Shown here: positions 11,760 to 53,016 of the stretch, in pieces
Position numbering within the stretch: the first letter of the stretch is position 1
Layout of the letters: each line of letters starts with the position of its first letter
From: Candidatus Peregrinibacteria bacterium GW2011_GWA2_33_10
GTDB lineage: Bacteria; Patescibacteriota; Gracilibacteria; UBA1369; GWC2-33-13
Assembly: GCA_000989565.1 (NCBI GenBank)
Contig: LBOO01000003.1
Location: forward strand, 22,832 to 86,831
Reading direction: 5' to 3'
DNA length: 64,000 nucleotides
The notes under the pieces: generated by a model
What the model saw: only the letters and a program-made list of their open reading frames with translations
The model's database searches: none
Told to the model about the DNA's origin: nothing
Translations under genes and position numbers: made by a program

Positions 11760-11824
11760 AAAAGAAGATAAATTTTAAAATCGTGTTTATCTTAAGGGTA
11801 ATATTATTTGTTGTAAAGGATACC

Positions 11825-12217: not shown

Positions 12218-12277
12218 AAAAACCTTTGGTTACATTTTTTTACATGATAGGTCTCTTAATTTTTTAATGCAAGTTTT

Positions 12278-13549: not shown

Positions 13550-13659
13550 AATAGAGATTGTAAAATTTTAGATTTTAAATTATAAAATGTTTTAAATAAA
13601 AATCAATAGTATTTTTTCTTTATTCCTATTAAATATAATTGTATTTTTAATTTTTTATT

Positions 13660-20171: not shown

Positions 20172-22046
20172 TTATAATTTTTCTAAAATATTATATTTTT
20201 CATTTTTAAAAACTGTTTTTACTTGTGATTCCAGAAACTTTTTCATATTATCATAATCTCTTCCCGTATTTATGTCTGTTGCGTAAATCAAATAATTTAT
20301 TTGATAAAAATCAAGCATATTTTTAAATTTTGGTATATCGCGAAAATATAATTTTTTTTGGTTAATTTGGTGGTTGATGTTGAAAGGGATATCTGATTCA
20401 AAAAAAGTATATATATAATCTTTTCTAAAATATTTATAAAAGACAGTCATATTTTCAAAAAGTAGAAATTGATCGAGCTTTTCCGGCCTTTTTGCAATTG
20501 ATTCCTCTAAAGGATAGGCGTTAAGGTAGATAAATCTATTGTTTTTTTTGTTTTTTTCAAACCATTTTACAGCTTCCATGAAAGATGCTTCGGGCAGTCG
20601 GGCGTAACTGATTTTTTTTATAAAATGTATACTGTTAAAGAAAAAAATAATAACTAAAACAGTTATTATTATTTTCGATAGGGGTTTATAGTTTATTAAT
20701 TTGTAGAGGATAAAACCGCTGATTATGATAATAAATATATAATTGGCATATAAACCTCTTATTCCTCCAAAATTACTTAGTCCTATTTTTTGTGTTTGAG
20801 GAATTATGTCAATAAATAATAGGAATATGGGAATTAAAATTAAGATTAAATATTTTTCAAGCTTAGTTCGCAAAATAGAAAAAAATAAAACACCAAACAT
20901 CCCAAATAACGCCAGAAGATTTGTAATTATTGATATATTTCTCCATGTATCTGAGCTTAGATAGGAATGGAAAAGTTTAAATGTCAAGCTCCACCGTGAT
21001 GGCTCAAATTCTTTTTTTGGAAAAAAATAGATTTCTTTTGTTAAGAGAAAAATATCTATTATTACAACATTTATTAAAACAAAAGCTAAAATTGCAAAAG
21101 GTAAATTTATTTTATATTTAAACCAGAATTTTTTTAAAAATATGTTTTTAAATTTGAAAAGTGTTTTAATTGTTTTCGATTTTCGGCTAAATTTGAATTT
21201 GTCCCAGTAAAATCTGAGTGAGAACATAATCAGGCATATGTATATAAATAGAAAAAATCCTTTGTACATATATTCGATTAATTCAGGGCTTGATCTTTGG
21301 AGTCCGCCTAAGAACCAAAATACGCGTTTGAAACCTTTTAAATAATCCGGAAACACACTGCTTGTTAAGGCGAATCCTGTTATTAGGCTTAAAATAACCA
21401 TTAAAAAGTAATTTGCTGTTTTTTTTATTAAAAATTTATTTTGTTTTTTTATGGCTGATAATTCAAGAAAAAACATATAAATACTTATTATTCCCAAATA
21501 TATAAAAAAAATTTGAGAATATATGTTTAGACCTGCTACAAAGGTTAGAAGCAAAAGGAAGAAGCTTGTTTTTCCTTTTAAATATTTTATTAAGATTAAA
21601 AATAAAAAAGCGATAAAAGTTAAACTAAAATAAATTATTGAATTAACTTGACTAATCAAAAGAACCGCGGAGAAAAGAGAGCAGGAAATTAAAGCAATAT
21701 TTCTTTTGCCGAATAATTCCAGAGATAATAAGTAAGTTAAAAGAAAACCTAAAATAGGGCTTATGATCGTATTTAAAATAAAAGTTTCAGTTGTGGATAC
21801 TCCTGTTGTGATTTTAAATATGGCCGCCAGATATGCTTCAAACGGTCTTGTAATTGTCAGAATATTATAGTCGTTGTTTCTAATTATCCATTGTGTATGC
21901 TCCATGATCGTAGAAGTGTCATTGCCCGGCGCAATATAGCTTTTTTTGTGGATGATTAAATAAATTTTATATAAAAGTCCGAAAAATGAGCTGATCGCGA
22001 TTAATAAAAAGTAAATAGATGTTTTTTCTTTGTGCGTTTTATTCAT
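20172..22046 (-). CDS. Polytopic membrane protein with a C-terminal soluble domain (possible GT-C-fold glycosyltransferase; function uncertain)
   Basis: 624 aa. About 12-14 hydrophobic helices over the first ~470 residues, then a ~150-aa hydrophilic tail. The layout resembles PMT/ArnT-like enzymes, but I could verify no catalytic motif. Confidence 0.6.
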   Translation of the reverse strand: MNKTHKEKTSIYFLLIAISSFFGLLYKIYLIIHKKSYIAPGNDTSTIMEHTQWIIRNNDYNILTITRPFEAYLAAIFKITTGVSTTETFILNTIISPILGFLLTYLLSLELFGKRNIALISCSLFSAVLLISQVNSIIYFSLTFIAFLFLILIKYLKGKTSFFLLLLTFVAGLNIYSQIFFIYLGIISIYMFFLELSAIKKQNKFLIKKTANYFLMVILSLITGFALTSSVFPDYLKGFKRVFWFLGGLQRSSPELIEYMYKGFFLFIYICLIMFSLRFYWDKFKFSRKSKTIKTLFKFKNIFLKKFWFKYKINLPFAILAFVLINVVIIDIFLLTKEIYFFPKKEFEPSRWSLTFKLFHSYLSSDTWRNISIITNLLALFGMFGVLFFSILRTKLEKYLILILIPIFLLFIDIIPQTQKIGLSNFGGIRGLYANYIFIIIISGFILYKLINYKPLSKIIITVLVIIFFFNSIHFIKKISYARLPEASFMEAVKWFEKNKKNNRFIYLNAYPLEESIAKRPEKLDQFLLFENMTVFYKYFRKDYIYTFFESDIPFNINHQINQKKLYFRDIPKFKNMLDFYQINYLIYATDINTGRDYDNMKKFLESQVKTVFKNEKYNILEKL

Positions 22047-34522: not shown

Positions 34523-35842
34523 ATGACGCGATTAAATCCAATTACATTTTTATTTTTATCCTTTATTGCAGGCATTTTTATTCATTTTGGAATTGCTTGC
34601 GCATTTTTTTTGCTACTACTAATATTTCTTATTTTTTCATTAAATGAAAGCAGAAATTATATTTTAGCTTTGTTTTTAATCGGTTTTTTTGTTTTTGGCG
34701 TGTTTCGGCTTAATCTTTGGGAAAATAAGGAAAAGAGGTTGTGGTACTATCAATTAAATCATGAAAAGCTTTTAATTCAGGGGCAAATAAAAAAGAAGTT
34801 TTCTTCTTTGGATAATCAGAGTAAGTATATTTTTCAAGTTGAGTTGATCGAAAATGAAGAGATTGAAGAGAATATTTTATTATATATGAAGAGGTATCCT
34901 GAATTGGAAACAGGAGATCGTTTGAAGATGACCGGGCAATTGAGAGAGCCCGCCAGTCGATATCAAAATTATTTGAAAATTTATGATGTTCGTTTTGTGG
35001 TTTTTGATGCGGAAATTTTATATGTTGAGAAATGCGGGAATGGTTTTAAATATGCACTTAGTAAAGTCAGATTAAAAATTTTGGATATTATAAAAGTTAT
35101 TTTTCCGGAACCATATTCCGGTTTTATGAATGGAATTTTTTTGGGAGAAAAAAATGATTTGCCTGAAGAGTTAAATCAAAAAATGCGTTTGGCAGGATTG
35201 AGCCATATTTTGGTTGTTTCAGGCTATAATATTACTTTAATCGCGATATGTTCGAATTATTTATTCAGCTTTTTAGGGAGAAAAATCAGGATTGTTTTAA
35301 CCGGAATAATGATTCTTTTTTTTATGTTTTTAGCCGGTTTTGATTCGTCAATATTAAGAGCGGGCATAATGGGGGTTTTGTCTCTTTTTGCTTTGTGGTG
35401 CGGGAGAATTTATGAAGTTTTTACAGGTATTTTTTTTGCCGCTTTTTTAATGTGTTTGTTAAATCCAATGCTTATTTTTTACGATGATGGTTTCAAATTA
35501 TCATTTTTGGCCACTATGGGAATTGCTTTAGGAGCAGAGCATTTTAAAATTTTAGGAAATAATTTAAAATTGAATTCAGTGATAAATGATTTGTTGTCTG
35601 TTACTTTTAGCGCTCAATTAGCTGTTTTGCCGATATTAGTATTTAAATATCATCAATTTACTTTTTTTAGTTTTATTTCAAATTTACTGGTGGTGCCGCT
35701 TATTCCTTGGACAATGTTATTGGGAGCCATTAGTTTTGGATTTTATTTTCTATATTTTGATTTGTCTCTGGTTTTTGGTTATTTGGCTTGGGGATTGATT
35801 GAGTTGATATTTCGGATTGCTGATTTGTTTTATAATTTATGA
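34523..35842 (+). CDS. comEC: ComEC/Rec2-family DNA internalisation channel protein (competence domain only)
   Basis: 439 aa, polytopic. An N-terminal OB-like insert and the motif GLSHILVVSGYNITLI are typical of the ComEC competence domain. No metallo-beta-lactamase domain is present. Confidence 0.85.
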   Translation: MTRLNPITFLFLSFIAGIFIHFGIACAFFLLLLIFLIFSLNESRNYILALFLIGFFVFGVFRLNLWENKEKRLWYYQLNHEKLLIQGQIKKKFSSLDNQSKYIFQVELIENEEIEENILLYMKRYPELETGDRLKMTGQLREPASRYQNYLKIYDVRFVVFDAEILYVEKCGNGFKYALSKVRLKILDIIKVIFPEPYSGFMNGIFLGEKNDLPEELNQKMRLAGLSHILVVSGYNITLIAICSNYLFSFLGRKIRIVLTGIMILFFMFLAGFDSSILRAGIMGVLSLFALWCGRIYEVFTGIFFAAFLMCLLNPMLIFYDDGFKLSFLATMGIALGAEHFKILGNNLKLNSVINDLLSVTFSAQLAVLPILVFKYHQFTFFSFISNLLVVPLIPWTMLLGAISFGFYFLYFDLSLVFGYLAWGLIELIFRIADLFYNL

Positions 35843-36677
35843 CATTGGTTTGAGTGAATTTTTTTAGTTGAATTTTTGAATATATTTTTTTTGCTGTAAA
35901 TATGGTAATAAGTATAGCAATGAAGATTAAAATCGGATATTTGTATTGTGTCCATAAATCAATAACTTTGGATTTTTTTTCCGGAAGCGGGGCGGGTTTG
36001 ATATTTTCGGGTGCTTTTAATTTTTTATCGGATTGGATTTTATTTGTTTTTACAGGTGTTCGTACTTTTGGTTTTGTGATGGATTTTTGTTCATCGGCAA
36101 ATAGAATTTGAGGTTCAGATTGCGTGGTTTTCAGTATTGACGTGAAATCGTTTTCATAATTTTTACAATCATTTTGGGCGCAGCTTAATTTGTATGATAA
36201 TAAAAAATCTTTATTATATTCAATAGCGTTAAATATTAAAATATTATTTTCAAAATGCGAAAAAAAACCGTTTATTTCAATAGATGATTGAGGTTCAAAA
36301 TTTTTATCTTCTTTGATTTGAAAATCAGGGAAATAAGTTTTTATTTCTTCAATGTATTTTTTTGTATAATTTTTTTTGAATGATGTAAAGTTCGGATAAT
36401 AGTTCGGTTCAACCGAGATGCTGAAATTATTGCGGAATGTTGAGCTTGAGTTCGGTAAAATAAATTGGCTTAGTATTTGTGTTGAATTAATTTGATTTAA
36501 TTTTAAATTTTTATTTTCGTTTAATAACTTCCATGAAGAGGGGATTGAAATTTCCAGTTTAAATTCAGGATATATTAATTTTTGACCATTGGCGCTCAGT
36601 AAATTCGGAATATTTAAAAGAAACATTAGAGCAAAAATAAGATATAAACGACATTTCATATTACATTTTATAAACAA
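35730..36677 (-). CDS. Hypothetical secreted protein with a C-terminal membrane anchor
   Basis: 315 aa. Signal peptide (CRLYLIFALMFLLNIPNLLSANG) and a TM near the C-terminus (YPILIFIAILITIFTA). The low-complexity tail overlaps the comEC 3' end. Confidence 0.6.
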   Translation of the reverse strand: MFIKCNMKCRLYLIFALMFLLNIPNLLSANGQKLIYPEFKLEISIPSSWKLLNENKNLKLNQINSTQILSQFILPNSSSTFRNNFSISVEPNYYPNFTSFKKNYTKKYIEEIKTYFPDFQIKEDKNFEPQSSIEINGFFSHFENNILIFNAIEYNKDFLLSYKLSCAQNDCKNYENDFTSILKTTQSEPQILFADEQKSITKPKVRTPVKTNKIQSDKKLKAPENIKPAPLPEKKSKVIDLWTQYKYPILIFIAILITIFTAKKIYSKIQLKKFTQTNVINYKTNQQSEISTQSIPKPNNQKPETNQNIENKIQN

Positions 36678-37185
36678 AAATTGGCGCGAGTCTTAATTTT
36701 TTATTTCTGGGAATGATTTTATGTGGCTTCCATGCTTTTATTTGGAACGCATAAGTAACAACGCGACTGCCTTTTTTCAATTCACTTTGTAATTTTTTCG
36801 CTACTTTTTGATTCGTTTCAGGCATTAGATAGAGTAAAACCACATCAGCATTTTTATAATTTTGATTCATGAAATTGGCAAAAATTATTTTTACTTTAGA
36901 TTGTGTTAAAATTTTCCTGATTTTGGCCATAAAATAGATGATCGGGGAAAGTTCGATGCCATATCCGTCAGCCTGATATTTTTTGACGGCCAATTCAACC
37001 AATCTGCCATCACCGCAACCAAGATCATAAACTTTTTCATTTTTTTTTATGTTTGCAGCTTTAAGCATTCTTTCAATTCCTTTTCGTGGTGTCGGGACCC
37101 ATGGAGCGCCACCAATCAATGCTCTTAAGGTGGGGATTAAGAGTATTACATAAATTATAATGGCAATTTTTGAATTAAAAATCAT
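36661..37185 (-). CDS. Class I SAM-dependent methyltransferase with an N-terminal TM helix
   Basis: 174 aa. The SAM-binding motif I VYDLGCGDGRL is preceded by a hydrophobic helix. Confidence 0.75.
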   Translation of the reverse strand: MIFNSKIAIIIYVILLIPTLRALIGGAPWVPTPRKGIERMLKAANIKKNEKVYDLGCGDGRLVELAVKKYQADGYGIELSPIIYFMAKIRKILTQSKVKIIFANFMNQNYKNADVVLLYLMPETNQKVAKKLQSELKKGSRVVTYAFQIKAWKPHKIIPRNKKLRLAPIFVYKM

Positions 37186-37187
37186 GT

Positions 37188-37671
37188 TTAAATTTTGTAT
37201 ATATAAATTATTGGGATCTTATTTTTTTTATCACGTTTAATAATTTTTAAAGGTTTTAATCCTTCAATATGAAATGTGTGTGAAACAATTATGGTTCCTT
37301 TGTGGCATTCTTTTTTTACCTTTTTAACCAGTTTTCATTGCTAAAAAATATGCGATTGGAGATAGTTCGTATCCTATGCATTTTGTATGATATTTTTTTT
37401 CGGCTGCGAATAAAAGCCGCCCATCACCGCAGCCAAGATCATAAATTGTTTGTCCTTTATGCGGTTTCGCGGTTTTTAATAAGGTTTCAATTAATCTTTT
37501 TTTGGTCGGGACATAAGGTACGCGATAAAATAAGCATACACATGCGGAAAGTACTAATATGAAAGTAAAAATTAAAGCTAAAATGGCAAATAAATTTAAA
37601 AGCATTTTTTTGTTATTAAATCCATTTATTTTACAGGAAAAAAGAGGAAAAGTATAGTGATCAGGCGTCAT
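37188..37671 (-). pseudogene. Decayed tandem paralogue of the adjacent methyltransferase (internal deletion plus frameshift)
   Basis: ORF 37324..37671 aligns to the paralogue through IYDLGCGDGRLLFAAEKKY..YELSPIAYFLA, then stops (MKTG*). My +1-frame translation of 37188..37320 gives KLVKKVKKECHKGTIIVSHTFHIEGLKPLKIIKRDKKNKIPIIYIYKI*, which aligns to the paralogue C-terminus KVAKKLQSELKKGSRVVTYAFQIKAWKPHKIIPRNKKLRLAPIFVYKM. About 40 central residues are missing. Confidence 0.7.
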
Positions 37672-37737: not shown

Positions 37738-37812
37738 GGCGCCATCGTCTAGCGGTTAGGACATTGCCCTCTCACGGCGAAAACAGGGGTTCGATTCCCC
37801 TTGGCGCTACCA
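37738..37812 (+). tRNA. tRNA-Glu (anticodon CUC), CCA encoded
   Basis: Manual fold: acceptor GGCGCCA/UGGCGCU (G1.U72), anticodon stem UUGCC/GGCGA, loop CUCUCAC giving anticodon CUC at positions 34-36, T arm AGGGG-UUCGAUU-CCCCU, 3' ACCA. Confidence 0.92.
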
Positions 37813-37923: not shown

Positions 37924-37998
37924 GGCGCCATCGTCTAGTGGTTAGGACATCAGGTTTTCATCCTGGTAACAGGGGTTCGATTCCCCTTGGCGCTACCA
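37924..37998 (+). tRNA. tRNA-Glu (anticodon UUC), CCA encoded
   Basis: Same acceptor, D and T arms as the upstream copy. Anticodon stem UCAGG/CCUGG, loop UUUUCAU giving anticodon UUC. Confidence 0.92.
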
Positions 37999-38013: not shown

Positions 38014-38418
38014 TTAGTTTCCATTGGGTGCGGAGATGATTATTTTGTTATTTTGGTCTTTTGCTATGGTATATCCTAAATTGTGATCTTTGCAGTTTTT
38101 GTAGTATGTGCCTTCCATATTTTGGTCAAAAGGAAGGGATGTTGTGTATTTCGGGATAAGAAGTTCGCAAATATTTACTTGGCCTTTAGACGATCCCATC
38201 AGGGTAGGCGTTTCATAAATTTGTTTTATGAATTCATCGTTGTTTTCTTTGGCATAGAGATCCATTAAATCAATTAGTTCCGTAACATCGCTTTGGCGTT
38301 GGTAATTTTTTATTTTTTTTAGCTGTTCTTTCGGATTAATAGTGAAAAAAATCCCAGACCCGAATATTATTATTAGAATTGTACCGAAAATTATATGGAT
38401 GATTTTTTGATTTTGCAT
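38014..38418 (-). CDS. Pilin-like protein lacking a canonical prepilin cleavage motif
   Basis: 134 aa. An N-terminal hydrophobic helix (IIHIIFGTILIIIFGSGIFF) is followed by INPKEQLKKIKNYQRQSDVTELIDLMDLYAKENNDEF, which resembles the alpha1-C segment of Gram-positive/CPR-type pilins. Two Cys residues lie in the C-terminal half. There is no G/A|FTLxE motif. Confidence 0.55.
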   Translation of the reverse strand: MQNQKIIHIIFGTILIIIFGSGIFFTINPKEQLKKIKNYQRQSDVTELIDLMDLYAKENNDEFIKQIYETPTLMGSSKGQVNICELLIPKYTTSLPFDQNMEGTYYKNCKDHNLGYTIAKDQNNKIIISAPNGN

Positions 38419-38645: not shown

Positions 38646-39182
38646 TTATTTAATGGATAGAGAAATTAGAATTTTTATATTTTGCTCGTTGTCGTCATCC
38701 ACAAAATTAAATTGCTCGAAGCCGATAAGATAAGGTAATTGATATTCAATATCTGAAAGAAATTTTACCGCTTCATTAAAATCTCCTGATAATCCCAAAT
38801 TATATTTTACATTTTTCAAATCTGTACTATCGACGGCATCTTGAGATAATTGGATAGTTAGGTTTCTATTTTTTCCCACTTCTTCCAGTTTTTCAATAAA
38901 GTTGATTATTCCTTCTTCGCTTGGACGAATTTGTTGTAGTTTGTCGAATTTATCTTTATAGCTTTTATTGAAATTTTCTAAAGTGTTTTTGTAATTGTTA
39001 ATTATAAGATCTCTTTGATAATGAATGCTTTTTAGATTGACTAAAGAAGTATTGTATTTTTTTATTTTATAAACGGAAAAAATGCAGATTGACGCGGAAA
39101 TCAATATGACAATAAGCGCTAAAACAGGTGTTTTAGTTAATCGAAGGTAATTTATTTTTTTATATATATTTTGGGTACTCAT
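38646..39182 (-). CDS. PilO-like pilus assembly protein
   Basis: 178 aa: TM, coiled coil, then a C-terminal ferredoxin-like segment (LSGDFNEAVKFLSDIEYQLPYLIGFEQFNF). 4-nt overlap with the upstream PilM/N gene. Confidence 0.6.
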   Translation of the reverse strand: MSTQNIYKKINYLRLTKTPVLALIVILISASICIFSVYKIKKYNTSLVNLKSIHYQRDLIINNYKNTLENFNKSYKDKFDKLQQIRPSEEGIINFIEKLEEVGKNRNLTIQLSQDAVDSTDLKNVKYNLGLSGDFNEAVKFLSDIEYQLPYLIGFEQFNFVDDDNEQNIKILISLSIK

Positions 39183-40690
39183 TTTTTTACGTTTTGATTA
39201 GAATTTATCATTGCATAGGGTGGCAGTTTTTGGTCATTTATGGATATTTTCGCGATAAATGAAATTTTACCTTTTTGCACCAGCGATGCTAAAGGCAGAT
39301 CAATGCTTTTTTGCAGCGGGTAGCTCTCCAAACTTTTTTTCAAGGCAATTACTGCGTTTCTATCAGGAGCAATGCCGTCTAAAAGTATTAATTGGCTATT
39401 TCTGTCAAAATTAATTTTGGTGATTTTAATGTTTTTTGGTACGTAGTCACGAAATTCTTGGAGAAAAGTTGATAAGGAATATAATGTTTTTTCAATTTTT
39501 TGTTCTGTAATTACCTCGGAATTAAATTTTTGAATATTGTCCCGTAAAGTTTGATAGTTTCCGCCTGATTCTATCCGGTCAATAGAATTTTTTGTAATCT
39601 GATAATATTTTTCCTGATAGTTTAAGTCAGCCCAAGTAATAATACTAAAATAAATTGCCAATAAGCCATAAATTATTAAAAATGAACTGATTAAATTAGT
39701 CAGTAAAACAAATTTTTGGATTAATTTTTGTTCTTTAATATTTTCAGGTATCAAATTTATATTATTTTGGTTATCTAAAGCCAAACCTATGGCTGAGGCG
39801 AAGGAAATAGCTTTTTCTTTGCTAATTTCGGGTTTTTTATTGATTCTTTCAATAATTTTAGGTTTTACATGGATTTGTGTCCAAGGATTGCCGAGCTCCA
39901 CTTCACGCGGAAAAATATTTTTTATTTGATTAAAAATTTCATTATTTGATAGAGCGCTGCCGTTCAAAATCGTTTTATTTATTTTTTCAGGAAATTTTTG
40001 GATAAAGTTTTTAATTTGTTCTAAAATATTTTCTATATCGGACAAATTTATATGCAGATAATCAGTTATTTGAATTTTTTGATTTTTGAGAATTATTAAA
40101 GAAAGAATTGTGGAATCAATGTCGCAAATTAAAACGTTATCCTGAATGTTTTTTTTCTTTTTTGACTTAAACGCATTAATAATTGCGTTATTTTTTAGAT
40201 TAAAGGTTGTTGGATTCAGATTGCAGCTTTCCAAAATTTGTAAAAATTGATCAGCTATATTTTTTTCAACGCAGGCAAACAGTACTTTTTTTTCTGCTTT
40301 GTTTTCATTAATTATTTGATAATCAAAATATAATGAAGAAATCGGAATCGGAATAATTTTTTCCGCTTCAAATAAAAGCGCGTTTTTTAAATCATTGTTG
40401 GAGATTTTAACCGGAAGATTAAAAATGTGGATAAAGGTTTTGCTTGTGGGAATTGAACAGTGAACAGTTATATCGGCCGGTATTGGTGTAGGGATAGCGG
40501 TTGTCAACAAATTTTTAATGTTTTCCGTTAAAAGTATCGAATTTATGGTTTTATTTTCATTAATAAATGGCTGAGTAAGATTAATGTTATTTATGGATAC
40601 CAGTTCTTTTCGCGAAAATGTTTTTTTGATCAATATCGCGGTGATGTTTTGTTCCTGTATGTCTAAGCCTAATGTATAAGAATTAAACAA
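39179..40690 (-). CDS. PilM-PilN fusion (actin-like pilus assembly ATPase fold + TM + PilN-like domain)
   Basis: 503 aa. The N-terminus LGLDIQEQNITAILIKK is PilM-like. TM around residues 330-352. The C-terminus ITKINFDRNSQLILLDGIAPDRNAVIALKKSLE is PilN-like. Confidence 0.7.
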   Translation of the reverse strand: MFNSYTLGLDIQEQNITAILIKKTFSRKELVSINNINLTQPFINENKTINSILLTENIKNLLTTAIPTPIPADITVHCSIPTSKTFIHIFNLPVKISNNDLKNALLFEAEKIIPIPISSLYFDYQIINENKAEKKVLFACVEKNIADQFLQILESCNLNPTTFNLKNNAIINAFKSKKKKNIQDNVLICDIDSTILSLIILKNQKIQITDYLHINLSDIENILEQIKNFIQKFPEKINKTILNGSALSNNEIFNQIKNIFPREVELGNPWTQIHVKPKIIERINKKPEISKEKAISFASAIGLALDNQNNINLIPENIKEQKLIQKFVLLTNLISSFLIIYGLLAIYFSIITWADLNYQEKYYQITKNSIDRIESGGNYQTLRDNIQKFNSEVITEQKIEKTLYSLSTFLQEFRDYVPKNIKITKINFDRNSQLILLDGIAPDRNAVIALKKSLESYPLQKSIDLPLASLVQKGKISFIAKISINDQKLPPYAMINSNQNVKK

Positions 40691-40715: not shown

Positions 40716-41108
40716 TTATTGTTCAGTAAAATTAATGATTTTTATGCTGCGATAATTTTCATTGGTGGAAATTATTGTTTCTATAATAAGATTTTTGGTG
40801 ATTTTGTTCTCAATTATTTCGATTTCAATTGTTTTATTCGGATCTGTCCCACTGATATTGATAGTACAAGTTTGATTGTTATAATTCAAGGTTCCACCTA
40901 TATATGTCGCGGAATTTTTTAATCTGAATAAAGCTTCTTCGGCACAAGTATTTGAATAAATGGAGCTTAAATTCGATTTGTTTATAATATGGCTTTTTTG
41001 GAGATTAATAATATTTATTTTGGCTATAGTGCCGGTGATAAGTACTAAGAAAGCCGTAAAAATCAGGACAGTCAAGAGCATTATGCCGGCTTTTTTGTGA
41101 TTTACCAT
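40716..41108 (-). CDS. PilX-like minor pilin/pseudopilin
   Basis: 130 aa. KKAG|IMLLTVLIFTAFLVLITG N-terminal helix with no Glu at +5, as is typical of PilX_N. Confidence 0.55.
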   Translation of the reverse strand: MVNHKKAGIMLLTVLIFTAFLVLITGTIAKINIINLQKSHIINKSNLSSIYSNTCAEEALFRLKNSATYIGGTLNYNNQTCTINISGTDPNKTIEIEIIENKITKNLIIETIISTNENYRSIKIINFTEQ

Positions 41109-41608
41109 ATTCTTTGGGTGAAGATTTGTTTAAAGGTTTCGATTTCTTTACCTTTATGCAATGTTAATTGAATTTGGATGCTGTTTGGTTCATTTGGGGT
41201 ATTCAATCGATGAAAAGTAAGGCCGGAAACTTCAATGTCGCTGCTGTTTAAAGTTATTTCATCATTTGTTCCGGTTATCAGAAACAGATTTTTGTTTTCA
41301 ATAAGAAATCTTGTTGGATTTTTTGTTGTGTCGTTCATGATTAAGATTAATGCGCCGGGATTTGTGTCAAAAATCGAGGTGCTTTCGTTTATTGTTTTTG
41401 CCGAGTGGATTTGACGGCCTATTTCATTCAGAATCAAATGTCCGTTTTCGTGGATGCTTTCTTTTATAAAATTATCTTTTTTATGCATCATGCTGTTGAT
41501 TGTGATTTGAAAGATTATAGTGAGTATTACGGAAATGATGCCGAGGTAAATGAGGGTTTCGGGGAGGGTGAAGGCTTTGGAGTCCGTAATTTGATTGTTT
41601 TTATTCAT
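41102..41608 (-). CDS. Prepilin-type N-terminal cleavage/methylation domain protein (minor pilin)
   Basis: 168 aa. SKA|FTLPETLIYLGIISVILTIIF is a class III signal with Glu at +5. Confidence 0.7.
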   Translation of the reverse strand: MNKNNQITDSKAFTLPETLIYLGIISVILTIIFQITINSMMHKKDNFIKESIHENGHLILNEIGRQIHSAKTINESTSIFDTNPGALILIMNDTTKNPTRFLIENKNLFLITGTNDEITLNSSDIEVSGLTFHRLNTPNEPNSIQIQLTLHKGKEIETFKQIFTQRIW

Positions 41609-41610
41609 TT

Positions 41611-43491
41611 TTAATTGTTGCGGAAGTTGAATTGAAGTTCGTTTAAGATAGGAGAACTATTGGAATCTCCCGTGAAATAAGCTCGATATTGGAAATATCT
41701 TGGAGTGGTTGGAGTTCCGGGAAGAAGGATTTTTGTAAACGGATTTGTGTAATAGGATGTATTTGTCGCATCAGGTCCGATAAATTCTGTGGATAAAAGG
41801 TCTGTATATGAATTCGCGGTTCGAATTTGGAATTTCAGATTGCCTCCCGGAGAGTTTAAATAACTGACAAATAAATTGTAATAAACAGTAGTTAGTGAAC
41901 CTGTATCAAAAATTCTTGAAGTGAAATCTCCGGATACGGCGAATTCTTCAACGGGCGGACCTATAATCACGAATCCTCGATTGGAATTGGTGGTGGCCAT
42001 ATAAATATATTCTCCGGCCGCGATAAAACCTCGTCCTTTGCCTTGAATATCTTGAGCAAATAAAAAATCAGGATTTAAATCGTCTTCACTTTTATCAAGG
42101 ATGGCTATTCCGGCATTATTTTTATCTGTAGAAACAAATATAAAATCACCAAAAACATCGACTCTGAATCCTGCGGCTTCGATATCTATGGAGCGGATAT
42201 ATTGTGGATTAGCGAGTTCGTTAAGACTTATTACCGCCAAGCCGTTAGTATTATTATCAACCGCCATGTAGGCTTTATTGTCGCTTAAAGTGATTCCTTT
42301 GCCTTTTCCGTAAATAAAGTCGACATCAATAGATTCAGGATTATCCGGATCCGAAATATCATATGTCATTAAACCGGTTAGCATATGTTCATTAGCCAGA
42401 TAAGCGTAATTGTCGCGAACAGCAATGCTGTTGACACTGCCAAGAGTCAATGCCTCTCCTCTTTTTTGGGGATTTAAAGGATCGGATATATCCATGATTA
42501 TCATGCCTCGAAGCATATTTTCCACAGCTAAATAAGCAAAGTTGTCTTTTATACTGATGTCGTTAATTGTGGCGCCGAGATTGATAGTTTTTATTATTTG
42601 CGGATTAAGAGGGTCAGCGATATTCACGATCACTAAACTTTTAGATGCTTGTTTTGTGCCTATAAACGCGTAATTGTCTTTTATGTCAATGCAGGCGCCT
42701 CTAGTTTGAATATTTAAACTTTTTACCAGAGAAGGATTTTGTGGATCGCTGATGTCCACGACTTGAAATCCTTTTGTATTACTATCAACAGCAATGAATG
42801 CGTAATTACTTTGAACTTCGACATCATTCGCGGCTGCTTCAAGTTTTACCGATGATGTAAATCCTGAAGGGGAAAAAATTACACTTAAAGTTATGGCTCC
42901 ATTATTTTCCGGTGGCGTTTCACTGTTTATTATTTCCACACTATTTAAAGTTCCTTGGTTAAATTCCGTAGTTAAGTTGTCGCCCAGAGTATTATTTTGC
43001 CAATTTGTCAGGATTGATTGTGAATTAATTTGACGCGGGGGTAAATGAGCGGGTTTCCAGGAAATTTCACAAATGGCTTTTTTGCTATGAAGATCAAGAG
43101 TTCCCGTGTCAGCGATATTTAAGTCATTATCACGGAAAATATCTGAAATTGTAATTGCGCGGGTATATTTGTTATCAATGATTTCATTTCCGGCAACCAG
43201 ATTTATATTTCCCGATGAAAAGTTTAATCCGAAAGTTCCGTTTTGTAATAGAGAAAAATCCGTATCCCTGACATGCCTTACTGCTTCAAAACATTCTCGC
43301 AAGAGTGAGTACGCGGCATTTTGTTCAAATCGTCTTTGTTGGGCTTGAATAGAATAAAAAAGTAAATTAATCGCTGCCAGAGTAATTATTGAAAAAATTA
43401 ACACAGCGAGCAGTACTTCAAGGAGAACTTGACCTTTTTTTTGAAAAATTAATTTGATTCGATCAGCCAAGCGCTGAGCTGGAAATTTCAT
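41611..43491 (-). CDS. Large PilV-like prepilin carrying seven LVIVD-type repeats (candidate beta-propeller) and a ~110-aa C-terminal domain
   Basis: 626 aa. KKG|QVLLEVLLAVLIFSIITLA is a class III signal. Residues ~215-512 hold seven repeats of the form [YF]A[YF][IL]A...G[FLM].[IV][IVM]DISDP.NP, e.g. YAFIAVDSNTKGFQVVDISDPQNP and FAYLAVENMLRGMIIMDISDPLNP. Confidence 0.8.
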   Translation of the reverse strand: MKFPAQRLADRIKLIFQKKGQVLLEVLLAVLIFSIITLAAINLLFYSIQAQQRRFEQNAAYSLLRECFEAVRHVRDTDFSLLQNGTFGLNFSSGNINLVAGNEIIDNKYTRAITISDIFRDNDLNIADTGTLDLHSKKAICEISWKPAHLPPRQINSQSILTNWQNNTLGDNLTTEFNQGTLNSVEIINSETPPENNGAITLSVIFSPSGFTSSVKLEAAANDVEVQSNYAFIAVDSNTKGFQVVDISDPQNPSLVKSLNIQTRGACIDIKDNYAFIGTKQASKSLVIVNIADPLNPQIIKTINLGATINDISIKDNFAYLAVENMLRGMIIMDISDPLNPQKRGEALTLGSVNSIAVRDNYAYLANEHMLTGLMTYDISDPDNPESIDVDFIYGKGKGITLSDNKAYMAVDNNTNGLAVISLNELANPQYIRSIDIEAAGFRVDVFGDFIFVSTDKNNAGIAILDKSEDDLNPDFLFAQDIQGKGRGFIAAGEYIYMATTNSNRGFVIIGPPVEEFAVSGDFTSRIFDTGSLTTVYYNLFVSYLNSPGGNLKFQIRTANSYTDLLSTEFIGPDATNTSYYTNPFTKILLPGTPTTPRYFQYRAYFTGDSNSSPILNELQFNFRNN

Positions 43492-44677
43492 AAATTGGTG
43501 CGATAATGGCTACTGCCAGACCTCCGACAGATACGCCCATGATTAATAAAAGTATGGGTTCCAAAAGAGTGGATAGATTTTTTGTGGCTTGAGAAACTTC
43601 TTTTTCATATAATTTTGCCAAATGGGATGAAGTTTTTGATAAATTGCCGATCTGTTCGCCTACAGCGATCATTTTCGATACCATTGGAGGGAATAATTTT
43701 TTGTGTGATCCAAGAGCTTCGGATAAAGAGCCTCCTTGTTGGATTTTTTCTCCTGCTTCTCTAATTACTTTTTGATATTGGTAATTACTCAGAGTGTCAG
43801 CTGTGATATTAATTGCTTCAACTATCGGCGTGCCGCTTTGAATCAATGAAGAAAATGTGCGTGAAAACAGACTGATATTTGTTTTTTTCAATAGATTTCC
43901 GAAAATCGGAAGTTTAAGATAAAGCAAATGAATAATAGGTCTGATTGTTTTTGTTTTTATGGAGATTCTAAAGCCTGTGATTAAACCAAAAACCCCGATT
44001 ATAATAAGTAAATAATGAGCGCGAATAAATTCACTGATATTCATGACTATTTGAGTCGATCTTGGAAGTTTTGTGTCAAATGTGCTTAAAATATCCATTA
44101 TTTTAGGCATGGTGAAAGTCATTAAAAATAAGATCAATAATACTGTCATGGATAATAAAATAGCCGGATAAATAAAAGCACCGATTAATTTTTTACGCGT
44201 TTCATATGTTTTTTCCATTTGTCTTGTGAGATATGTTAAAGAGTCGCTTAAGGTTCCCGAGCTTTCTCCGATTCGGATCATGCTTAACGCCATTGTTGAA
44301 AATACGCTTGGATAACAGGCAAATGTGGCAAATAACGATAAACCGCTTTTTAAATTCGCATGAGCTTCTTTTAATATTTTACTGAAATTTTTGTTTTCTG
44401 TTTGATCGCTCAATGTTTCAATGCTTTCAGAGATGGTTAATCCGGCGTCTAACATTGATGATAAGTGTTTGAAAAAAATCACTTTTTCGAGCATTGCCAC
44501 TTTTACGTCAAAATGAAAGAATTTTTTAAACCATGTTTTTCTTTCTTCATTGATGTTGAGGACAATTAAAGATAGTTTCTGCAATTCTTGAATCGCTTTT
44601 CCTTTATCTTCGGAAACTATATTGTCTTCAACAATTTTTCCGGTTAGTGTTGATGCTTTGTAGTGAAAAGTTGGCAA
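43463..44677 (-). CDS. pilC: Type IV pilus platform protein PilC (GspF family)
   Basis: 404 aa. Two T2SSF-type repeats, each followed by TM helices (LSSMLDAGLTISESIETL and FSSLIQSGTPIVEAINI). Confidence 0.9.
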   Translation of the reverse strand: MPTFHYKASTLTGKIVEDNIVSEDKGKAIQELQKLSLIVLNINEERKTWFKKFFHFDVKVAMLEKVIFFKHLSSMLDAGLTISESIETLSDQTENKNFSKILKEAHANLKSGLSLFATFACYPSVFSTMALSMIRIGESSGTLSDSLTYLTRQMEKTYETRKKLIGAFIYPAILLSMTVLLILFLMTFTMPKIMDILSTFDTKLPRSTQIVMNISEFIRAHYLLIIIGVFGLITGFRISIKTKTIRPIIHLLYLKLPIFGNLLKKTNISLFSRTFSSLIQSGTPIVEAINITADTLSNYQYQKVIREAGEKIQQGGSLSEALGSHKKLFPPMVSKMIAVGEQIGNLSKTSSHLAKLYEKEVSQATKNLSTLLEPILLLIMGVSVGGLAVAIIAPIYEISSSALG

Positions 44678-44704: not shown

Positions 44705-46414
44705 TTATTCTCGAATCACTCTGAGGATTTCTTCCAGGGAGGTGCTACCGTTGAGGGCTTTTTCAATTCCGTCTTCAAACATGCTTTGAAATCCGTTTTG
44801 TTCAGCGCTTAACGCTATTTCTTCGGGTGTTTTGTTGTGCATGATCAGGTCTTTGATAATATCGTTTATGACAATTACTTCCGAAATACATGTTCTGCCT
44901 TTGTATCCCGTATTATTGCAAAGTTTGCATCCATATGCTTTGTAAAAATAGATTTCTTCAATATTGACTGCTTTTTTTTTGAATATGTTATGTAATAATT
45001 CGATTGAACTGACATTAAGTTTTAAACTTTCAGCCAGTTTTACCAATTCTTTTTTGTTCAGCATGTATTTTTCTTTGCACCCGTCGCAGATTTTTCTGAT
45101 TAATCTTTGAGCGATTGTCATAATTACTGTGGAACTGACTAAAAAAGGCTCTACTCCCATTTCTATTAAACGAACCAAAGTAGATGCCGCATTGTTGGTA
45201 TGTAAAGTGGCTAGAACCAAATGTCCGGTTAGGGCTGCGTTTACGGCTATTGTGGCAGTTTCGTTGTCGCGGATTTCTCCGACCATTATGATGTCCGGAT
45301 CTTGGCGCAATAAAGATCTTAAACCGGCGGAAAAGGTTAAACGGGTTTCAGTATTTACTTGAATTTGATTAACACCTTCCAAACGATATTCAATTGGATC
45401 TTCAATTGTGGCTATGTTTACTTCTCTGCTATTTAATTCGCGGAGAATGGCATATAAAGCCGTGGTTTTTCCGGATCCGGTAGGGCCGGTTACCAGAATC
45501 ATGCCGTGAGTTTTACGAATATTATCTTCAATTCGCAGAAGATTAAATTTATTGTAACCTAAATCTTCCAATGTTAGGGTTTTATTTTGAGGAGCAAGAA
45601 GGCGAAGAACTATTTTTTCTCCGTCATAAATCGGAACTATGGAAACTCTAAGAGTTAAATCATCATTATCGATTTCAATTTTGAATCTGCCGTCTTGAGG
45701 AGCGCGGTGCTCATCGGTGTGCAGATTGGACAATACTTTGATACGCGTGGTGATTAATTCTTGTACTTCTTTCGGTAAATTTATAATGTCGTGAAGAAGA
45801 CCATCCATGCGAAAGCGCACTAGAACACTTTTTTTCTGAGGTTCAATATGAATGTCCGATGCTTTGCCTTCGTAAGCCAAAATAATGAGCGAGTCCAAAA
45901 GTTTGGAAACATCTTTTAAAGACTCAATTTCATCAGGATTTTTAAGAATGTTTTTCAATAATTTATCGAAACGGTCATGTATGTCTTTGTTGTAAGCTTT
46001 TAATTGATTTTTAATTTCCGAGGGAGTGGTGTAGTAAATAATAATTTTTAGTCCTGTTTTTTGTTGAATGAAAGAAAAACCTTCTTGGTTTTCCGGGTTT
46101 GAGGTAGCTATAAAAAGTTTATCTTTATTTTTGTCGAAAGCTATAATTTGTTGATTTTGAGCAACAGAAAAAGGGATTTCCAGTAAAATGTTTTCCGGAA
46201 TTACTCGATTTGATAAGTTAATGAATTTTGTTTTAAAAAGATCAGCGATTAAGGTTCCTAATTTTTCTTCAGATAAGATGTTGTGCTCAATGATTTTTTC
46301 TTCCAAAGATTTATGGTCTTCCGCGATCTCTTTTAAACAGGTATCTAATTGAGCTTTAACAATTAAATTGTTTTCAAGTAAATAAGCGCTAAGTTTTTTG
46401 GTTTCGACAGACAT
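44705..46414 (-). CDS. pilB: Type IV pilus assembly ATPase PilB (GspE family)
   Basis: 569 aa. N-terminal T2SSE_N-like domain, Walker A GPTGSGKTT, Asp box, Walker B IMVGEIRD, His box ATLHTN, and a tetracysteine motif CDGC...CKLC. Confidence 0.93.
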   Translation of the reverse strand: MSVETKKLSAYLLENNLIVKAQLDTCLKEIAEDHKSLEEKIIEHNILSEEKLGTLIADLFKTKFINLSNRVIPENILLEIPFSVAQNQQIIAFDKNKDKLFIATSNPENQEGFSFIQQKTGLKIIIYYTTPSEIKNQLKAYNKDIHDRFDKLLKNILKNPDEIESLKDVSKLLDSLIILAYEGKASDIHIEPQKKSVLVRFRMDGLLHDIINLPKEVQELITTRIKVLSNLHTDEHRAPQDGRFKIEIDNDDLTLRVSIVPIYDGEKIVLRLLAPQNKTLTLEDLGYNKFNLLRIEDNIRKTHGMILVTGPTGSGKTTALYAILRELNSREVNIATIEDPIEYRLEGVNQIQVNTETRLTFSAGLRSLLRQDPDIIMVGEIRDNETATIAVNAALTGHLVLATLHTNNAASTLVRLIEMGVEPFLVSSTVIMTIAQRLIRKICDGCKEKYMLNKKELVKLAESLKLNVSSIELLHNIFKKKAVNIEEIYFYKAYGCKLCNNTGYKGRTCISEVIVINDIIKDLIMHNKTPEEIALSAEQNGFQSMFEDGIEKALNGSTSLEEILRVIRE

Positions 46415-48922: not shown

Positions 48923-49948
48923 ATGAAAATTATGAAAAAAATATTAATTTTTACAATAAGCGTGATATTGATCATTAATTCATTTAATGCCACAAAATCA
49001 GCCAAAGCCGATTTTGAGCTGCCTTTTACTGATCTGCCAACAGAACATTCTGATTACGAAGCTATAAAATATTTATACGATAGAAATATAATTCAAGGCT
49101 ATTCTGATAATACTTTTCGGCCTGAACAAACGGTTAATAGAGCTGAAGCTTTAAAAATAATACTTATGAGTTCCAATTATCATTTTTCTGAAACCGATGA
49201 GCAAATACAACTTGTTAATGCTGAAAATGCTACTCCTGAAGTGTCAATTAACTCTGAAATAAGTGCTTTTTTGGATATCTCAGCCAAAGATTGGTATTAT
49301 CCGTACATAAAAAAAGCCAATGAAATGGATATTATTCATGGATATCCCAATGGATTTTTCTATCCGGAAAAAAGTATAAATTTATCTGAAGCTTTAAAAA
49401 TAATTTTGCTTTCATTCAGCGCGGAAATTACTCAAACTATGGTTGATAATCCATATAATGATGTTGCCGTGGAAACCTGGTATGCGCCATATTTTTCAGT
49501 ATTTCAAAACTACAAATTATTGGAAACCGATACTGATAATAATATCTATCCTAATCGGCCTGTAAGCAGAGCAATGCTGTCGAGTCTGATTTATCGTTAT
49601 ATCAAAAGGGATGAAATTAAAATTATAAATGAAAAAAAACAAGAACAAATCGAATATATTTATGGCAAGGCTACTTTTTATGGTGAAGGAGATGGATTTG
49701 ACGGCAATCATACCGCGAACGGAGAAGTATTTGATAAAAATCAATTTACCGGGGCCTCAAGAACCCTCCCTTTCAACACAAAAATTCGTGTTTACAACTT
49801 GGAGACAAATGATTATGTTGATGTTAGGATAAATGATCGCGGGCCTTATGATTATCGTTTTATTTTAGACTTGTCTGCTGAAGCGTTCAAACGTTTGGCA
49901 CCTATTTCTCGCGGATATATTCCTATTAAATATGAAATTCTAAAATGA
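48923..49948 (+). CDS. Secreted protein with three SLH-like repeats and a C-terminal RlpA-like double-psi beta-barrel
   Basis: 341 aa with a signal peptide. The repeats are FTDLPTEHSDYEAIKYLYDRNIIQGYSDNTFRPEQTVNRAEALKIIL, FLDISAKDWYYPYIKKANEMDIIHGY... and a third copy. The C-terminus GKATFYGEGDGFDGNHTANGEVFD...VRINDRGPY is RlpA/DPBB-like. Confidence 0.8.
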   Translation: MKIMKKILIFTISVILIINSFNATKSAKADFELPFTDLPTEHSDYEAIKYLYDRNIIQGYSDNTFRPEQTVNRAEALKIILMSSNYHFSETDEQIQLVNAENATPEVSINSEISAFLDISAKDWYYPYIKKANEMDIIHGYPNGFFYPEKSINLSEALKIILLSFSAEITQTMVDNPYNDVAVETWYAPYFSVFQNYKLLETDTDNNIYPNRPVSRAMLSSLIYRYIKRDEIKIINEKKQEQIEYIYGKATFYGEGDGFDGNHTANGEVFDKNQFTGASRTLPFNTKIRVYNLETNDYVDVRINDRGPYDYRFILDLSAEAFKRLAPISRGYIPIKYEILK

Positions 49949-51084: not shown

Positions 51085-53016
51085 ATGTCATTAGTAGAAA
51101 ATTTTGAGCAAATTATTTTAGGAAAAGATGAAGAAGGCTTTGCTTTCACTCAAGTTTACGATTATGTCGAATCTGTTGGTCAGAAAAATGAAGGAAGAAT
51201 TTTTTTTACTTTGGAGATGCCAAATAATCCATTATTGGCGGAGGAAATAGCTAAAGATATTTTTGACTGTTTAAAAGAAAATTTTTATTTGGAAATGGAT
51301 AGGGATCCTTATCTTCGATTTGAGGATTCATTAAAAAAAATCAATGAGGTTGTTTTAAAAAAGGAAAAAGAAAAAGAATTTAAATTCATTTCAAATTTAA
51401 GTATTGCGATCGGCGTTATTGCCAGAGATAATTTGTATTTAACGCAAGCCGGAGATGCGGAAGTTTATTTGGTGAGAGGAAAATATGTGAGTGTGATTAC
51501 AGAGGGGTTATCCGAAGATGATGCGGCAAATGAATTGTTCAGCAATGTCGCTAGCGGTGCTTTGGAAGATTCAGATACTGTAATTTTGAGTTCCACAAAA
51601 CTTCTTCGATATTTGACGGAAATTGATTTAAGTAAACTTTTTTCCAATTATAATCTTCCTGAAGCCTTAAAAGAACTTCGATCTTTGTTGAAGAGGGAAG
51701 TTTCCAATAAAGTGGCGATTTTAGGAATTGAAGTAAAAGAAAAAGAAATTTTGAATGAGGAGGAAAAAATTGAAACTGCCGGAATTCCCAGAGTGTCCGA
51801 TAATCGCCGGATTTTGATGAAATTAAGTTCTGTTTTGCCTGCTTTAAAAGCTAAAATTGCGAATTTAAACAGATTTGATAAACAAAAATTTCAAGATTTT
51901 TTCTTGTTTTTTAAAGGTAAAAAGAATGCAATTTTATTACTTTCCATAATAATGTTTTTAACGTTAAGTGTCAGTGTTTATAGTTTGCAGGTTAGAAGTC
52001 GCGAGAAAAAAGAGAGTACAACATATGCCGCTGATTTGCTTCACGCAAAAGAAAATGTTGATTTGGCAAAGCAAAGGTCTTACGATAAAGAAAAAGCTGG
52101 AGTATTGTTGGACGCGGCGGAGAAAAACACTTTAAAGGTTTTGCAGTCCGGATATTTAAAAGCTGAGGCTATCAAAAATTTAGAAACAATTAAGTCGCAA
52201 AGGGATATGCTTGATAACGTTATAAGGATATCTTCTGATAAATTGCGCTTGGTAGCTGATTTGAGCGGGAAAAGAAGCAATGTAAATGCTATCGGGCTAT
52301 TGTCTTATCAGGACACTTTATATGCTTTTGAATATAATGCTCTTTATAAATTACTTTTAGACAGTGCTTCCGAGCCTTTAACAATTGATGATAATGAATT
52401 TGTTGTAAGAGGAACGTATTTTGAAGATAGAGATTCTTTGGTTTTCTTAACAAAATCCGGCCAGATTATTGAATTTAAAGATGGTGTTTTTACTTTCATG
52501 GATACTGAAGATAAGGCTTGGCATTCAGGAATGGATGTTGCCGCGTATTCAGATAAATTATATGTTTTGGATGCGGAGAATAATCAGATTTGGAAATATA
52601 AAAGAAGAAGAGATAAATATAGCGTGCCGGAAAAATTTGTTTCCGAAAGTGATTTAACCGGAGCAGTTTCGATTTCAATTGACGGAAGTGTTTATTTGTT
52701 GAAATCAAATGGAATCATTGAAAATTATTATGTTGGGAAAAAGCAGGACATCACTATTGACAATCAGCCGATTGTGCCTATGGAAAAGCCGAAAGCTCTT
52801 TATACGGAAAAAGATATGGATCAAGTTTATGTATTGGAACCGGAAAAAAAGAGAGTGCTTTTGTACAATAAAGTGCCGGGGAAATTTGATTTAATTTATA
52901 ATTCTCAATATATTTTTGAAGATGTAAAGGAAGAGATTAAAGATTTTTATATAGATAAAAAAGCGCGCAAGATGTATTTACTGACTGCGGCAAAGGTTTA
53001 TGAAATGGCGATGTAA
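51085..53016 (+). CDS. Hypothetical bitopic membrane protein: degenerate PP2C-like N-domain, TM, helical linker, six C-terminal repeats
   Basis: 643 aa. LSIAIGVIARDNLYLTQAGDAEVYLVRGKY resembles the PP2C motif around GDSR, but the DGMGG site reads LEMPNN. TM at residues 281-301. There are six repeats of the type D.LY.L....Q[IV]..[YF]. Confidence 0.6.
   Translation: MSLVENFEQIILGKDEEGFAFTQVYDYVESVGQKNEGRIFFTLEMPNNPLLAEEIAKDIFDCLKENFYLEMDRDPYLRFEDSLKKINEVVLKKEKEKEFKFISNLSIAIGVIARDNLYLTQAGDAEVYLVRGKYVSVITEGLSEDDAANELFSNVASGALEDSDTVILSSTKLLRYLTEIDLSKLFSNYNLPEALKELRSLLKREVSNKVAILGIEVKEKEILNEEEKIETAGIPRVSDNRRILMKLSSVLPALKAKIANLNRFDKQKFQDFFLFFKGKKNAILLLSIIMFLTLSVSVYSLQVRSREKKESTTYAADLLHAKENVDLAKQRSYDKEKAGVLLDAAEKNTLKVLQSGYLKAEAIKNLETIKSQRDMLDNVIRISSDKLRLVADLSGKRSNVNAIGLLSYQDTLYAFEYNALYKLLLDSASEPLTIDDNEFVVRGTYFEDRDSLVFLTKSGQIIEFKDGVFTFMDTEDKAWHSGMDVAAYSDKLYVLDAENNQIWKYKRRRDKYSVPEKFVSESDLTGAVSISIDGSVYLLKSNGIIENYYVGKKQDITIDNQPIVPMEKPKALYTEKDMDQVYVLEPEKKRVLLYNKVPGKFDLIYNSQYIFEDVKEEIKDFYIDKKARKMYLLTAAKVYEMAM

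Follow-up and report, generated by a model that had tools for sequence, protein, structure and literature searches.

What is a run of seven LVIVD-type repeats doing behind the signal of a type IV prepilin? The question is raised by a gene for a 626-amino-acid protein on the minus strand of a 64,000-nucleotide stretch (the window) of contig LBOO01000003.1 from Candidatus Peregrinibacteria bacterium GW2011_GWA2_33_10. Members of the bacterial candidate phyla radiation (CPR, Patescibacteria) live attached to other microbes, and to our knowledge type IV pili are the sole CPR attachment device shown to matter, the case being that of TM7x. The answer favoured here, at a probability of roughly 0.65, is that the protein is a modular core minor pilin of a CPR type IV pilus whose repeats form a beta-propeller serving as a ligand-binding head at the pilus tip for attachment. 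A first-pass annotation of the DNA had already proposed a propeller covalently built into a minor pilin, and this is borne out by the LVIVD hidden Markov model (HMM), AlphaFold2 modelling, Foldseek comparison, an invariant N-terminal motif and synteny in type IV pilus operons. A propeller-bearing modular CPR minor pilin is an already known kind of protein, and the combination of N_methyl and LVIVD has already been listed; what is added here is a domain map with a nested propeller, an operon position that is fixed, an account of how large the family built on the same pilin module (the scaffold family) is and how its modules vary, and another modular minor pilin encoded by this genome.

The gene and its product divide as follows, all coordinates being those of the window.

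41611..43491, minus strand: modular minor pilin (prepilin) gene, 626 amino acids, coordinates including the stop codon (open reading frame; LVIVD E=9e-23; 17 homologues; AlphaFold2)
43432..43491, minus strand: leader peptide, residues 1-20, ending KKG (sequence; Gly or Ala at -1 in 17/17 homologues)
42997..43431, minus strand: pilin module, residues 21-165, predicted to have alpha1N with E25, alpha1 to residue 77 and a six-strand antiparallel sheet at 85-162 (AlphaFold2; profile A2)
42877..42996, minus strand: first half of a split beta domain, residues 166-205 (model confidence, profile matches, insert-less relatives)
41935..42876, minus strand: inserted, predicted seven-bladed LVIVD beta-propeller, about residues 206-519, repeat units 216-526 (Pfam, AlphaFold2, Foldseek)
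41614..41934, minus strand: second half of the split beta domain, residues 520-626 (107 amino acids), with motifs FQIRTA and GPDGT..YY (alignment A3)

The class III signal

The N-terminus reads MKFPAQRLADRIKLIFQKKG up to the cleavage site and QVLLEVLLAVLIFSIITLAAINLLF beyond it, that is KKG/QVLLEVLLAVLIFSIITLAAINLLF (the slash marking the site); Gly stands at -1 and Glu at +5, and some 20 hydrophobic residues follow. The class III signal KKG/QVLLE that had been picked out at first pass is upheld by an alignment of 17 full-length homologues, at 26-38% identity and 97% coverage, in every one of which E25 (+5) is invariant and position -1 is Gly or Ala; the consensus around the cleavage site is KAFSLxEVLLAI. 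The protein search from which such homologues come returned about 17 of full length (608-627 amino acids), some with N_methyl in their precomputed Pfam annotation, and also versions of about 940-980 amino acids, one of them labelled 'Patescibacteria group bacterium'.

Translation may start at either of two codons, an ATG at 43491 (leader of 20 amino acids), which overlaps the final 29 nucleotides of pilC, or a TTG at 43470 (leader of 13 amino acids), which overlaps the pilC stop codon; the ambiguity affects leader length alone. Phase variation through an A8 tract in the leader-coding part (43435-43442) was considered and rejected; the window holds 60 A/T tracts of at least 8. Promoter and terminator scans gave no enrichment relative to shuffled sequence.

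The pilin module

Residues 21-165 are confidently predicted to adopt the pilin fold, with a long alpha1 lying on an antiparallel beta sheet. The full-length AlphaFold2 model, built on the homologue alignment, has a mean predicted local distance difference test score (pLDDT) of 86.9 and consists of a helix (5-77), a sheet (85-162), extra strands (167-215), 28 propeller strands (221-517) and a C-terminal beta domain. When residues 1-215 are modelled separately, pLDDT is about 90 for 1-165, the level that the helix and sheet also have in the full-length model, and only 35-60 for 166-215. The pilin-like head of about 190 amino acids in the first-pass annotation has thus to be shortened: its pilin nature stands, at about 145 amino acids (21-165), and the remaining 40-50 amino acids belong with the C-terminal domain.

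For a wider view, GTDB species genomes were searched with PilB as bait, which yielded 47 loci, all at no more than 52% PilB identity and mostly labelled Patescibacteria (Saccharibacteria, Parcubacteria, Peregrinibacteria, Gracilibacteria, Uhrbacteria and others). Positions 1-157 of profile A2, which represent the pilin module, find a match in the syntenic gene of about 36 of these 47 CPR loci. NCBIfam models reach residues 17-79 only and stay below their cut-offs, with ComGE at 23.7 bits (cut-off 49), PilV at 22.5 (52.2) and GspI at 15.9 (44.35); weak N-terminal matches of the same sub-cut-off kind extend to ComGG and ComGF.

A propeller of seven blades

Pfam LVIVD (PF08309) matches the 626-amino-acid protein at 79.7 bits (E=9.3e-23, cut-off 20.2), well outside what chance would give. 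The seven repeats read from the sequence at first pass are there, and the placement given to them is correct, residues 215 and 512 being encoded by nucleotides 42847-42849 and 41956-41958. They are tandem, with a period of 44-46 amino acids (216-259, 260-303, 304-347, 348-391, 392-435, 436-480 and 481-526), and the motif [DN]I[SA]DPxNP is present in repeats 1-4, repeats 5-7 being degenerate. Searched with a repeat HMM derived from the family, this protein and its orthologues show seven units. The D481/G484 loop is close to invariant.

The repeats are predicted to form a closed seven-bladed propeller. The AlphaFold2 model has seven blades of four strands each, at pLDDT 88-96, which is the count that the first-pass annotation had led one to expect, and Foldseek against the PDB returns seven-bladed propellers at E of about 1e-11, TM-scores (template modelling scores) of 0.6-0.72 and 8-14% identity. 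These matches are generic WD40 scaffolds such as beta-TrCP and TLE (TM-score 0.72), with the phosphotriesterase Sb-PTE (5hrm) at rank 3. PDB sequence searches with the pilin module, the propeller and the C-terminal domain gave nothing significant, and so no solved structure related in sequence to the propeller; pilin-related matches in them were confined to the alpha1N of solved pilins, at E of 0.07-1.6.

A domain interrupted by another

The C-terminal domain, put at about 110 amino acids at first pass, turns out to be of 107 and of beta structure, and it has no Pfam match. It is present in 104 of the 150 best pilin-module representatives (defined below), always at the extreme C-terminus. To what, then, do the poorly modelled residues after the pilin module belong? 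Across the 47 loci the segment equivalent to 166-215 is matched only where the C-terminal domain is also present, and six short relatives of 294-314 amino acids join the two beta stretches directly with no insert; in one of them, P0129, '...DNGSVELELF' continues straight into 'TEGYLISQALNTG...'. Given this direct joining, 166-205 and 520-626 are one domain, and the propeller (about 206-519) is inserted in one of its loops.

The same frame of pilin module and C-terminal domain is shared by double-propeller relatives with 13-14 LVIVD repeats. Relatives of about 930-980 amino acids with that number of repeats, presumably two propellers, are P0012, P0021, P0022, P0026 and P0139, together with the gene at 11137-14052 of locus L007. 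A further one, P0162 (1676 amino acids), has 13 LVIVD repeats plus additional sequence.

Place in the pilus operon

The window is chromosomal DNA of low GC content (about 32%), with rpoB, dnaK, serS, gltX, rnpA and yidC. The order of the pilus operon is pilB, pilC, the gene for the 626-amino-acid protein, the 168-amino-acid pilin, the 130-amino-acid pilin, pilMN, pilO, a 68-amino-acid protein and a 134-amino-acid pilin homologue; a further minor pilin lies elsewhere in the window.

44705..46414, minus strand: PilB assembly ATPase, T2SSE and MshEN (Pfam E=1e-129)
43463..44677, minus strand: PilC platform protein, T2SSF (Pfam E=4e-60)
41102..41608, minus strand: 168-amino-acid minor pilin, SKA/FTLPE with Glu+5, third core minor pilin (in most CPR loci conserved as the gene directly following the scaffold)
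40716..41108, minus strand: 130-amino-acid minor pilin, KKAG/IMLLT, no Glu+5, conserved Cys pair, fourth core minor pilin and likely cap in the manner of GspK, PilX or ComGG
39179..40690, minus strand: PilM-PilN fusion, 503 amino acids (Pfam PilM_2 E=9e-15, PilN E=8e-4)
38646..39182, minus strand: PilO, 178 amino acids (Pfam PilO E=3e-5)
38014..38418, minus strand: 134-amino-acid homologue of a major-pilin-like gene, lacking Gly-1 and Glu+5 (alignment A6)
14414..15508, plus strand: relocated first core minor pilin, p150 type, 364 amino acids, MNKKA/FTLLE (Pfam; p150 profile A7)

Contigs bearing homologues have the same gene order with an extra pilin gene of about 150 codons between pilC and the LVIVD gene, and the arrangement pilB-pilC-(p150)-scaffold-p168-p130-pilMN-pilO is seen in L001, L002, L004, L053 and L054. 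The block p150-scaffold-p168-p130 is present in about 35 of the 47 CPR loci, the scaffold gene always being second. A minor pilin order H-I-J-K is common to type IV filament systems, the second place being that of GspI, PilV or ComGE, and GspK, PilX and ComGG lack Glu+5. The 626-amino-acid protein is accordingly the second of four core minor pilins, in the GspI/PilV/ComGE position.

The first-pass annotation had counted three neighbouring minor pilins. They are to be described more exactly: the 168-amino-acid protein has its Glu+5; the 130-amino-acid protein is without that residue; and the 134-amino-acid pilin homologue has lost its cleavage motif. The p150 gene is missing from the operon both here and in the closest relative, L053. 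Its counterpart in the window is the 364-amino-acid pilin, which profile A7 matches at E=7e-20 over positions 1-128 of 150, the entire pilin module being covered, and which passes the Pfam N_methyl threshold (24.3 bits) and has CBM96 (E=1e-14) and Disaggr_repeat (E=2e-9) besides. With these CBM96/disaggregatase-repeat modules in the p150-type protein, two of the four core minor pilins are modular in this genome.

Some features of the surroundings may be recorded. The PilM-PilN fusion is found in related CPR loci as well, at 517-555 amino acids. Between the operon and a ComEC gene treated below are tRNA genes (37738-37809 and 37924-37995) and methyltransferase-like open reading frames (36661..37185 and 37324..37671). 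On the other side, after rnpA-yidC-jag, lies a gene for an SLH and DPBB (RlpA-like lytic transglycosylase) protein (48923..49948, plus strand), and the rnpA-yidC-jag/SLH-DPBB neighbourhood also flanks the pilus operon on a relative's contig, L054. Four open reading frames have no Pfam match at the thresholds used: 20172..22046 (minus strand, 624 amino acids), 51085..53016 (plus, 643), 12278..13549 (minus, 423) and 35730..36677 (minus, 315).

A scaffold with many modules

A search for the same fusion in other genomes was suggested at first pass; besides the 17 full-length homologues, an LVIVD module is found in about 12 of the 47 CPR loci. In these loci the scaffold gene encodes 144-972 amino acids; Laminin_G_3, SpaA_2 and CarboxypepD_reg/PEGA modules are each seen at single loci, and the rest have nothing recognizable. 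When the pilin-module profile was run against 1.84 billion cluster representatives, 498 matched at E<=1e-30 and 4,696 at E<=1e-10; the matching proteins are 156-2116 amino acids long. The 150 top representatives comprise 141 that were scanned with Pfam and nine already-known family members. Among the 141 there are 58 with LVIVD, 41 with N_methyl, 7 with DUF4082, 6 with Laminin_G_3 and 5 with BNR-type propellers, and single cases of H_lectin, CBM_4_9, MAM and sialidase-related domains. The largest single class among the 150, with 39 members, combines seven LVIVD repeats with the C-terminal domain, as the present protein does, a ranking tilted in its favour because the profile was built from LVIVD-bearing proteins. 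A class-III-like motif is present in 140 of the 150.

Many scaffold relatives are module-free (144-280 amino acids) or have unrelated modules, those of some being of sialidase, BNR or GH115_C type. Loci L011, L031, L032 and L043 encode an enlarged core minor pilin of p168 or p130 type (the third or the fourth) as well, of 340-875 amino acids; module grafting is therefore not limited to the scaffold gene.

Relation to known systems

The first-pass annotation knew of no characterized example, and this has to be corrected: LVIVD pilins were catalogued in 2021 (PMC8179133) and a propeller pilin, PilX2, has been deleted and studied (PMC12206443). Raynaud et al. (PNAS 2021, PMC8179133) defined modular type IV pilins, in which, as in the present protein, a class III signal and pilin module stand at the N-terminus and a grafted module comes after them. 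The paper's Dataset S1 has 30 proteins combining IPR012902 (N_methyl) with IPR013211, the InterPro entry for the LVIVD repeat, with 1-13 repeats, and its text mentions an 860-amino-acid Candidatus Falkowbacteria protein with 12 copies of a motif 'of unknown function'. The catalogue is without propeller identification, operon position or nested insertion, and its LVIVD pilins are experimentally unstudied. The 626-amino-acid protein would escape a search based on IPR012902 because its N_methyl score is below threshold. Beyond this catalogue, the literature search found no paper linking LVIVD with pilins.

Closest in description is PilX2 of TM7x (Nanosynbacter lyticus), a minor pilin whose RCC1 propeller has seven blades, whose signal is non-canonical and which has been proposed as a tip adhesin (Grossman et al., ISME J 2025, PMC12206443); its deletion lowers host binding from 10.6% to 4.6% with pili still made (PMC11623550, PMC12206443). 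By description, then, both are CPR minor pilins with a seven-bladed propeller and a non-canonical signal. They differ in that the PilX2 propeller is of RCC1 repeats and that of the present protein of LVIVD (the Pfam scan of the latter has no RCC1 family), and in that pilX2 is in a pilin-only locus for the thin type IV pilus T4P-2, whereas the present gene directly follows pilB-pilC. PilX1, the largest of the pilins encoded at the main machinery locus for type IV pili in TM7x, bears a beta-jelly-roll domain and no propeller; compared by description, its pilin plus beta-domain architecture resembles the insert-less form of the scaffold. Scaffold genes are at the syntenic position in loci labelled Saccharibacteria or Saccharimonadales (L025, L031 and L050).

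PilY1/PilC of Pseudomonas, Neisseria and Myxococcus also places a seven-bladed propeller at the pilus tip, by way of the core minor-pilin complex, and serves in both adhesion and priming. However, PilY1 is a non-pilin, without class III signal or alpha1, and its propeller is of another family (IPR008707). A relationship to it was considered and rejected, leaving analogy only: there is no PilY1 Pfam family at E<=1 and no PilY1 structure among the 50 listed Foldseek matches. Tip-located minor pilins that a functional domain has made larger include Streptococcus sanguinis PilB (vWA) and PilC (lectin) as well as CofB, ComZ and GspK, with S. sanguinis PilB being a tip-exposed modular pilin adhesin (PMC8179133). 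ComZ and GspK provide precedent for domain insertion within a pilin-associated fold. The modules of this group are vWA, ConA-like lectin, beta-repeat, beta-solenoid and alpha-domain, and none is a propeller.

What might the propeller do?

In the proposed scheme prepilin peptidase would cut after Gly20, and alpha1 of the mature protein would dock with the 168-amino-acid pilin, the 130-amino-acid pilin (the probable cap) and the relocated 364-amino-acid p150-type pilin. The four would constitute a priming complex whose final place is the tip of the pilus, and only there, not in the filament body, would the additional head formed by propeller and beta domain, about 50 kDa in mass, be expected to fit. 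The ligand-binding head might then attach the cell to a partner cell or surface, and retraction or tethering of the pilus might draw the cells together. We infer this scheme from what is established for the complexes GspHIJK, FimU-PilVWX and ComGD-GG, and also from modular pilins (PMC8179133). Within the complex, the 130-amino-acid pilin is the likelier cap, with the 626-amino-acid protein just beneath it, because the latter keeps Glu+5 and the former is without it; the 626-amino-acid protein thus probably belongs to the tip complex without capping it. A role for it as tip adhesin in host attachment is plausible, and a binding role is favoured because lectin-type modules occupy this place elsewhere, the modules met there in other genomes being Laminin_G_3 lectin, BNR propeller, H_lectin, CBM_4_9, SpaA and CarboxypepD_reg.

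A number of observations weigh against such a role or against the protein being a pilin in the first place. Pfam N_methyl (PF07963/IPR012902), which the first-pass annotation had named alongside LVIVD, scores 13.3 bits in the 626-amino-acid protein against a threshold of 21.2, probably because +1 is Gln and not Phe, the usual residues there being Phe or Met; several homologues do pass, and scaffold-family relatives at the syntenic position score 28.0 (L052), 23.3 (L021) and 28.5 bits (L008). The Foldseek search with the model of the N-terminal module has a best E of 0.13 and no significant match to a solved pilin, its likeliest pilin match being EpsI (GspI, 2ret_A) at probability 0.54, so the GspI/PilV assignment rests on gene order and the weak HMM matches. 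A scan of the 64-kb window for the PilD motif GxGD[VAIFLM][KR] was empty, though the scan is crude and absence is not proven. The operon's own major-pilin homologue of 134 amino acids has lost its cleavage motif: it starts MQNQKIIHIIFG, is 27-32% identical to relatives opening KKG/FTLIEVLL, scores 223 bits with the A6 profile (which was built from alignment A6 and so contains this sequence), and the DNA upstream has no space for a longer N-terminus. A gene for a ComEC-like DNA-uptake channel (Competence PF03772 plus DUF4131; 34523..35842, plus strand) about 2 kb from the operon fits a DNA-uptake pilus. LVIVD repeats are functionally uncharacterized (PMC2447325, PMC10210494), and the literature has no LVIVD pilin with demonstrated ligand, tip location or processing.

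Might the propeller instead serve pilus biogenesis or dynamics in the manner of PilY1, through priming, counter-retraction or force sensing and not through specific adhesion? The gene is in the core minor-pilin block, which primes assembly in other systems according to what PMC11623550 relays of Treuner-Lange 2020, and PilY1 has a seven-bladed propeller likewise. Nevertheless the possibility is an unlikely one, since so many scaffold relatives are module-free or carry unrelated modules, so that the propeller cannot be required for priming; there is no PilY1 Pfam domain, and TM7x lacking pilX2 is still piliated (PMC11623550).

Distinctly unlikely is a competence pilus whose module captures DNA at the tip, like Thermus ComZ or the ComG minor-pilin complex. 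It would account for the ComEC gene and the weak N-terminal matches to ComGE, ComGF and ComGG, and CPR bacteria are thought to scavenge DNA. Yet the propeller, with an isoelectric point of 4.4 and a net charge of -15, is acidic and ill suited to DNA binding (the whole mature protein has an isoelectric point of 4.6), which argues against DNA capture despite the nearby ComEC. The sister modules at this position are, moreover, of lectin or carbohydrate-binding types, and TM7x T4P-2 mutants have no competence defect (PMC11623550).

That the propeller is a pilus-borne enzyme, for instance a glycosidase or esterase acting on the partner's envelope, and not a passive binder, we consider very unlikely. 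The third-ranked Foldseek match is, as noted, a seven-bladed phosphotriesterase, the sialidase, BNR and GH115_C-type modules of some scaffold relatives point the same way, and peptidase-bearing modular pilins were noted by Raynaud et al. (PMC8179133); against this, Pfam and NCBIfam detect no catalytic family, the best Foldseek matches are generic WD40 scaffolds at 8-14% identity, and no conserved metal-binding or catalytic motif was identified.

Most improbable of all is that the protein is no pilin and sits at the surface on an uncleaved N-terminal signal anchor, an idea that could draw on the sub-threshold N_methyl score, the Gln at +1, the empty PilD scan and the like absence of predicted PilD signals from PilX1 and PilX2 of TM7x (PMC12206443), and that founders on the invariant Glu+5 with Gly or Ala always at -1, the predicted pilin fold, the homologues exceeding the N_methyl threshold and the fixed place among the minor pilins of type IV pilus operons in many CPR lineages.

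Wider significance

The gain from the single gene is modest, one more member of a surveyed architecture with a clearer domain map. What extends further is that a large scaffold family with alternative binding modules, LVIVD propellers being commonest among close relatives, provides a concrete candidate set of host-recognition proteins for bacteria that live on others. A bolder and rather doubtful extension, offered tentatively, is that the second core minor pilin of CPR bacteria is a conserved 'socket', a pilin module plus split beta domain of which one loop takes interchangeable binding modules, whether single or double LVIVD propellers, ConA-like lectins, BNR propellers or DUF4082. Were that so, swappable heads, those of the scaffold together with the CBM96-bearing p150 pilin, would set which host an episymbiont recognizes, much as receptor-binding-protein cassettes do for phages.

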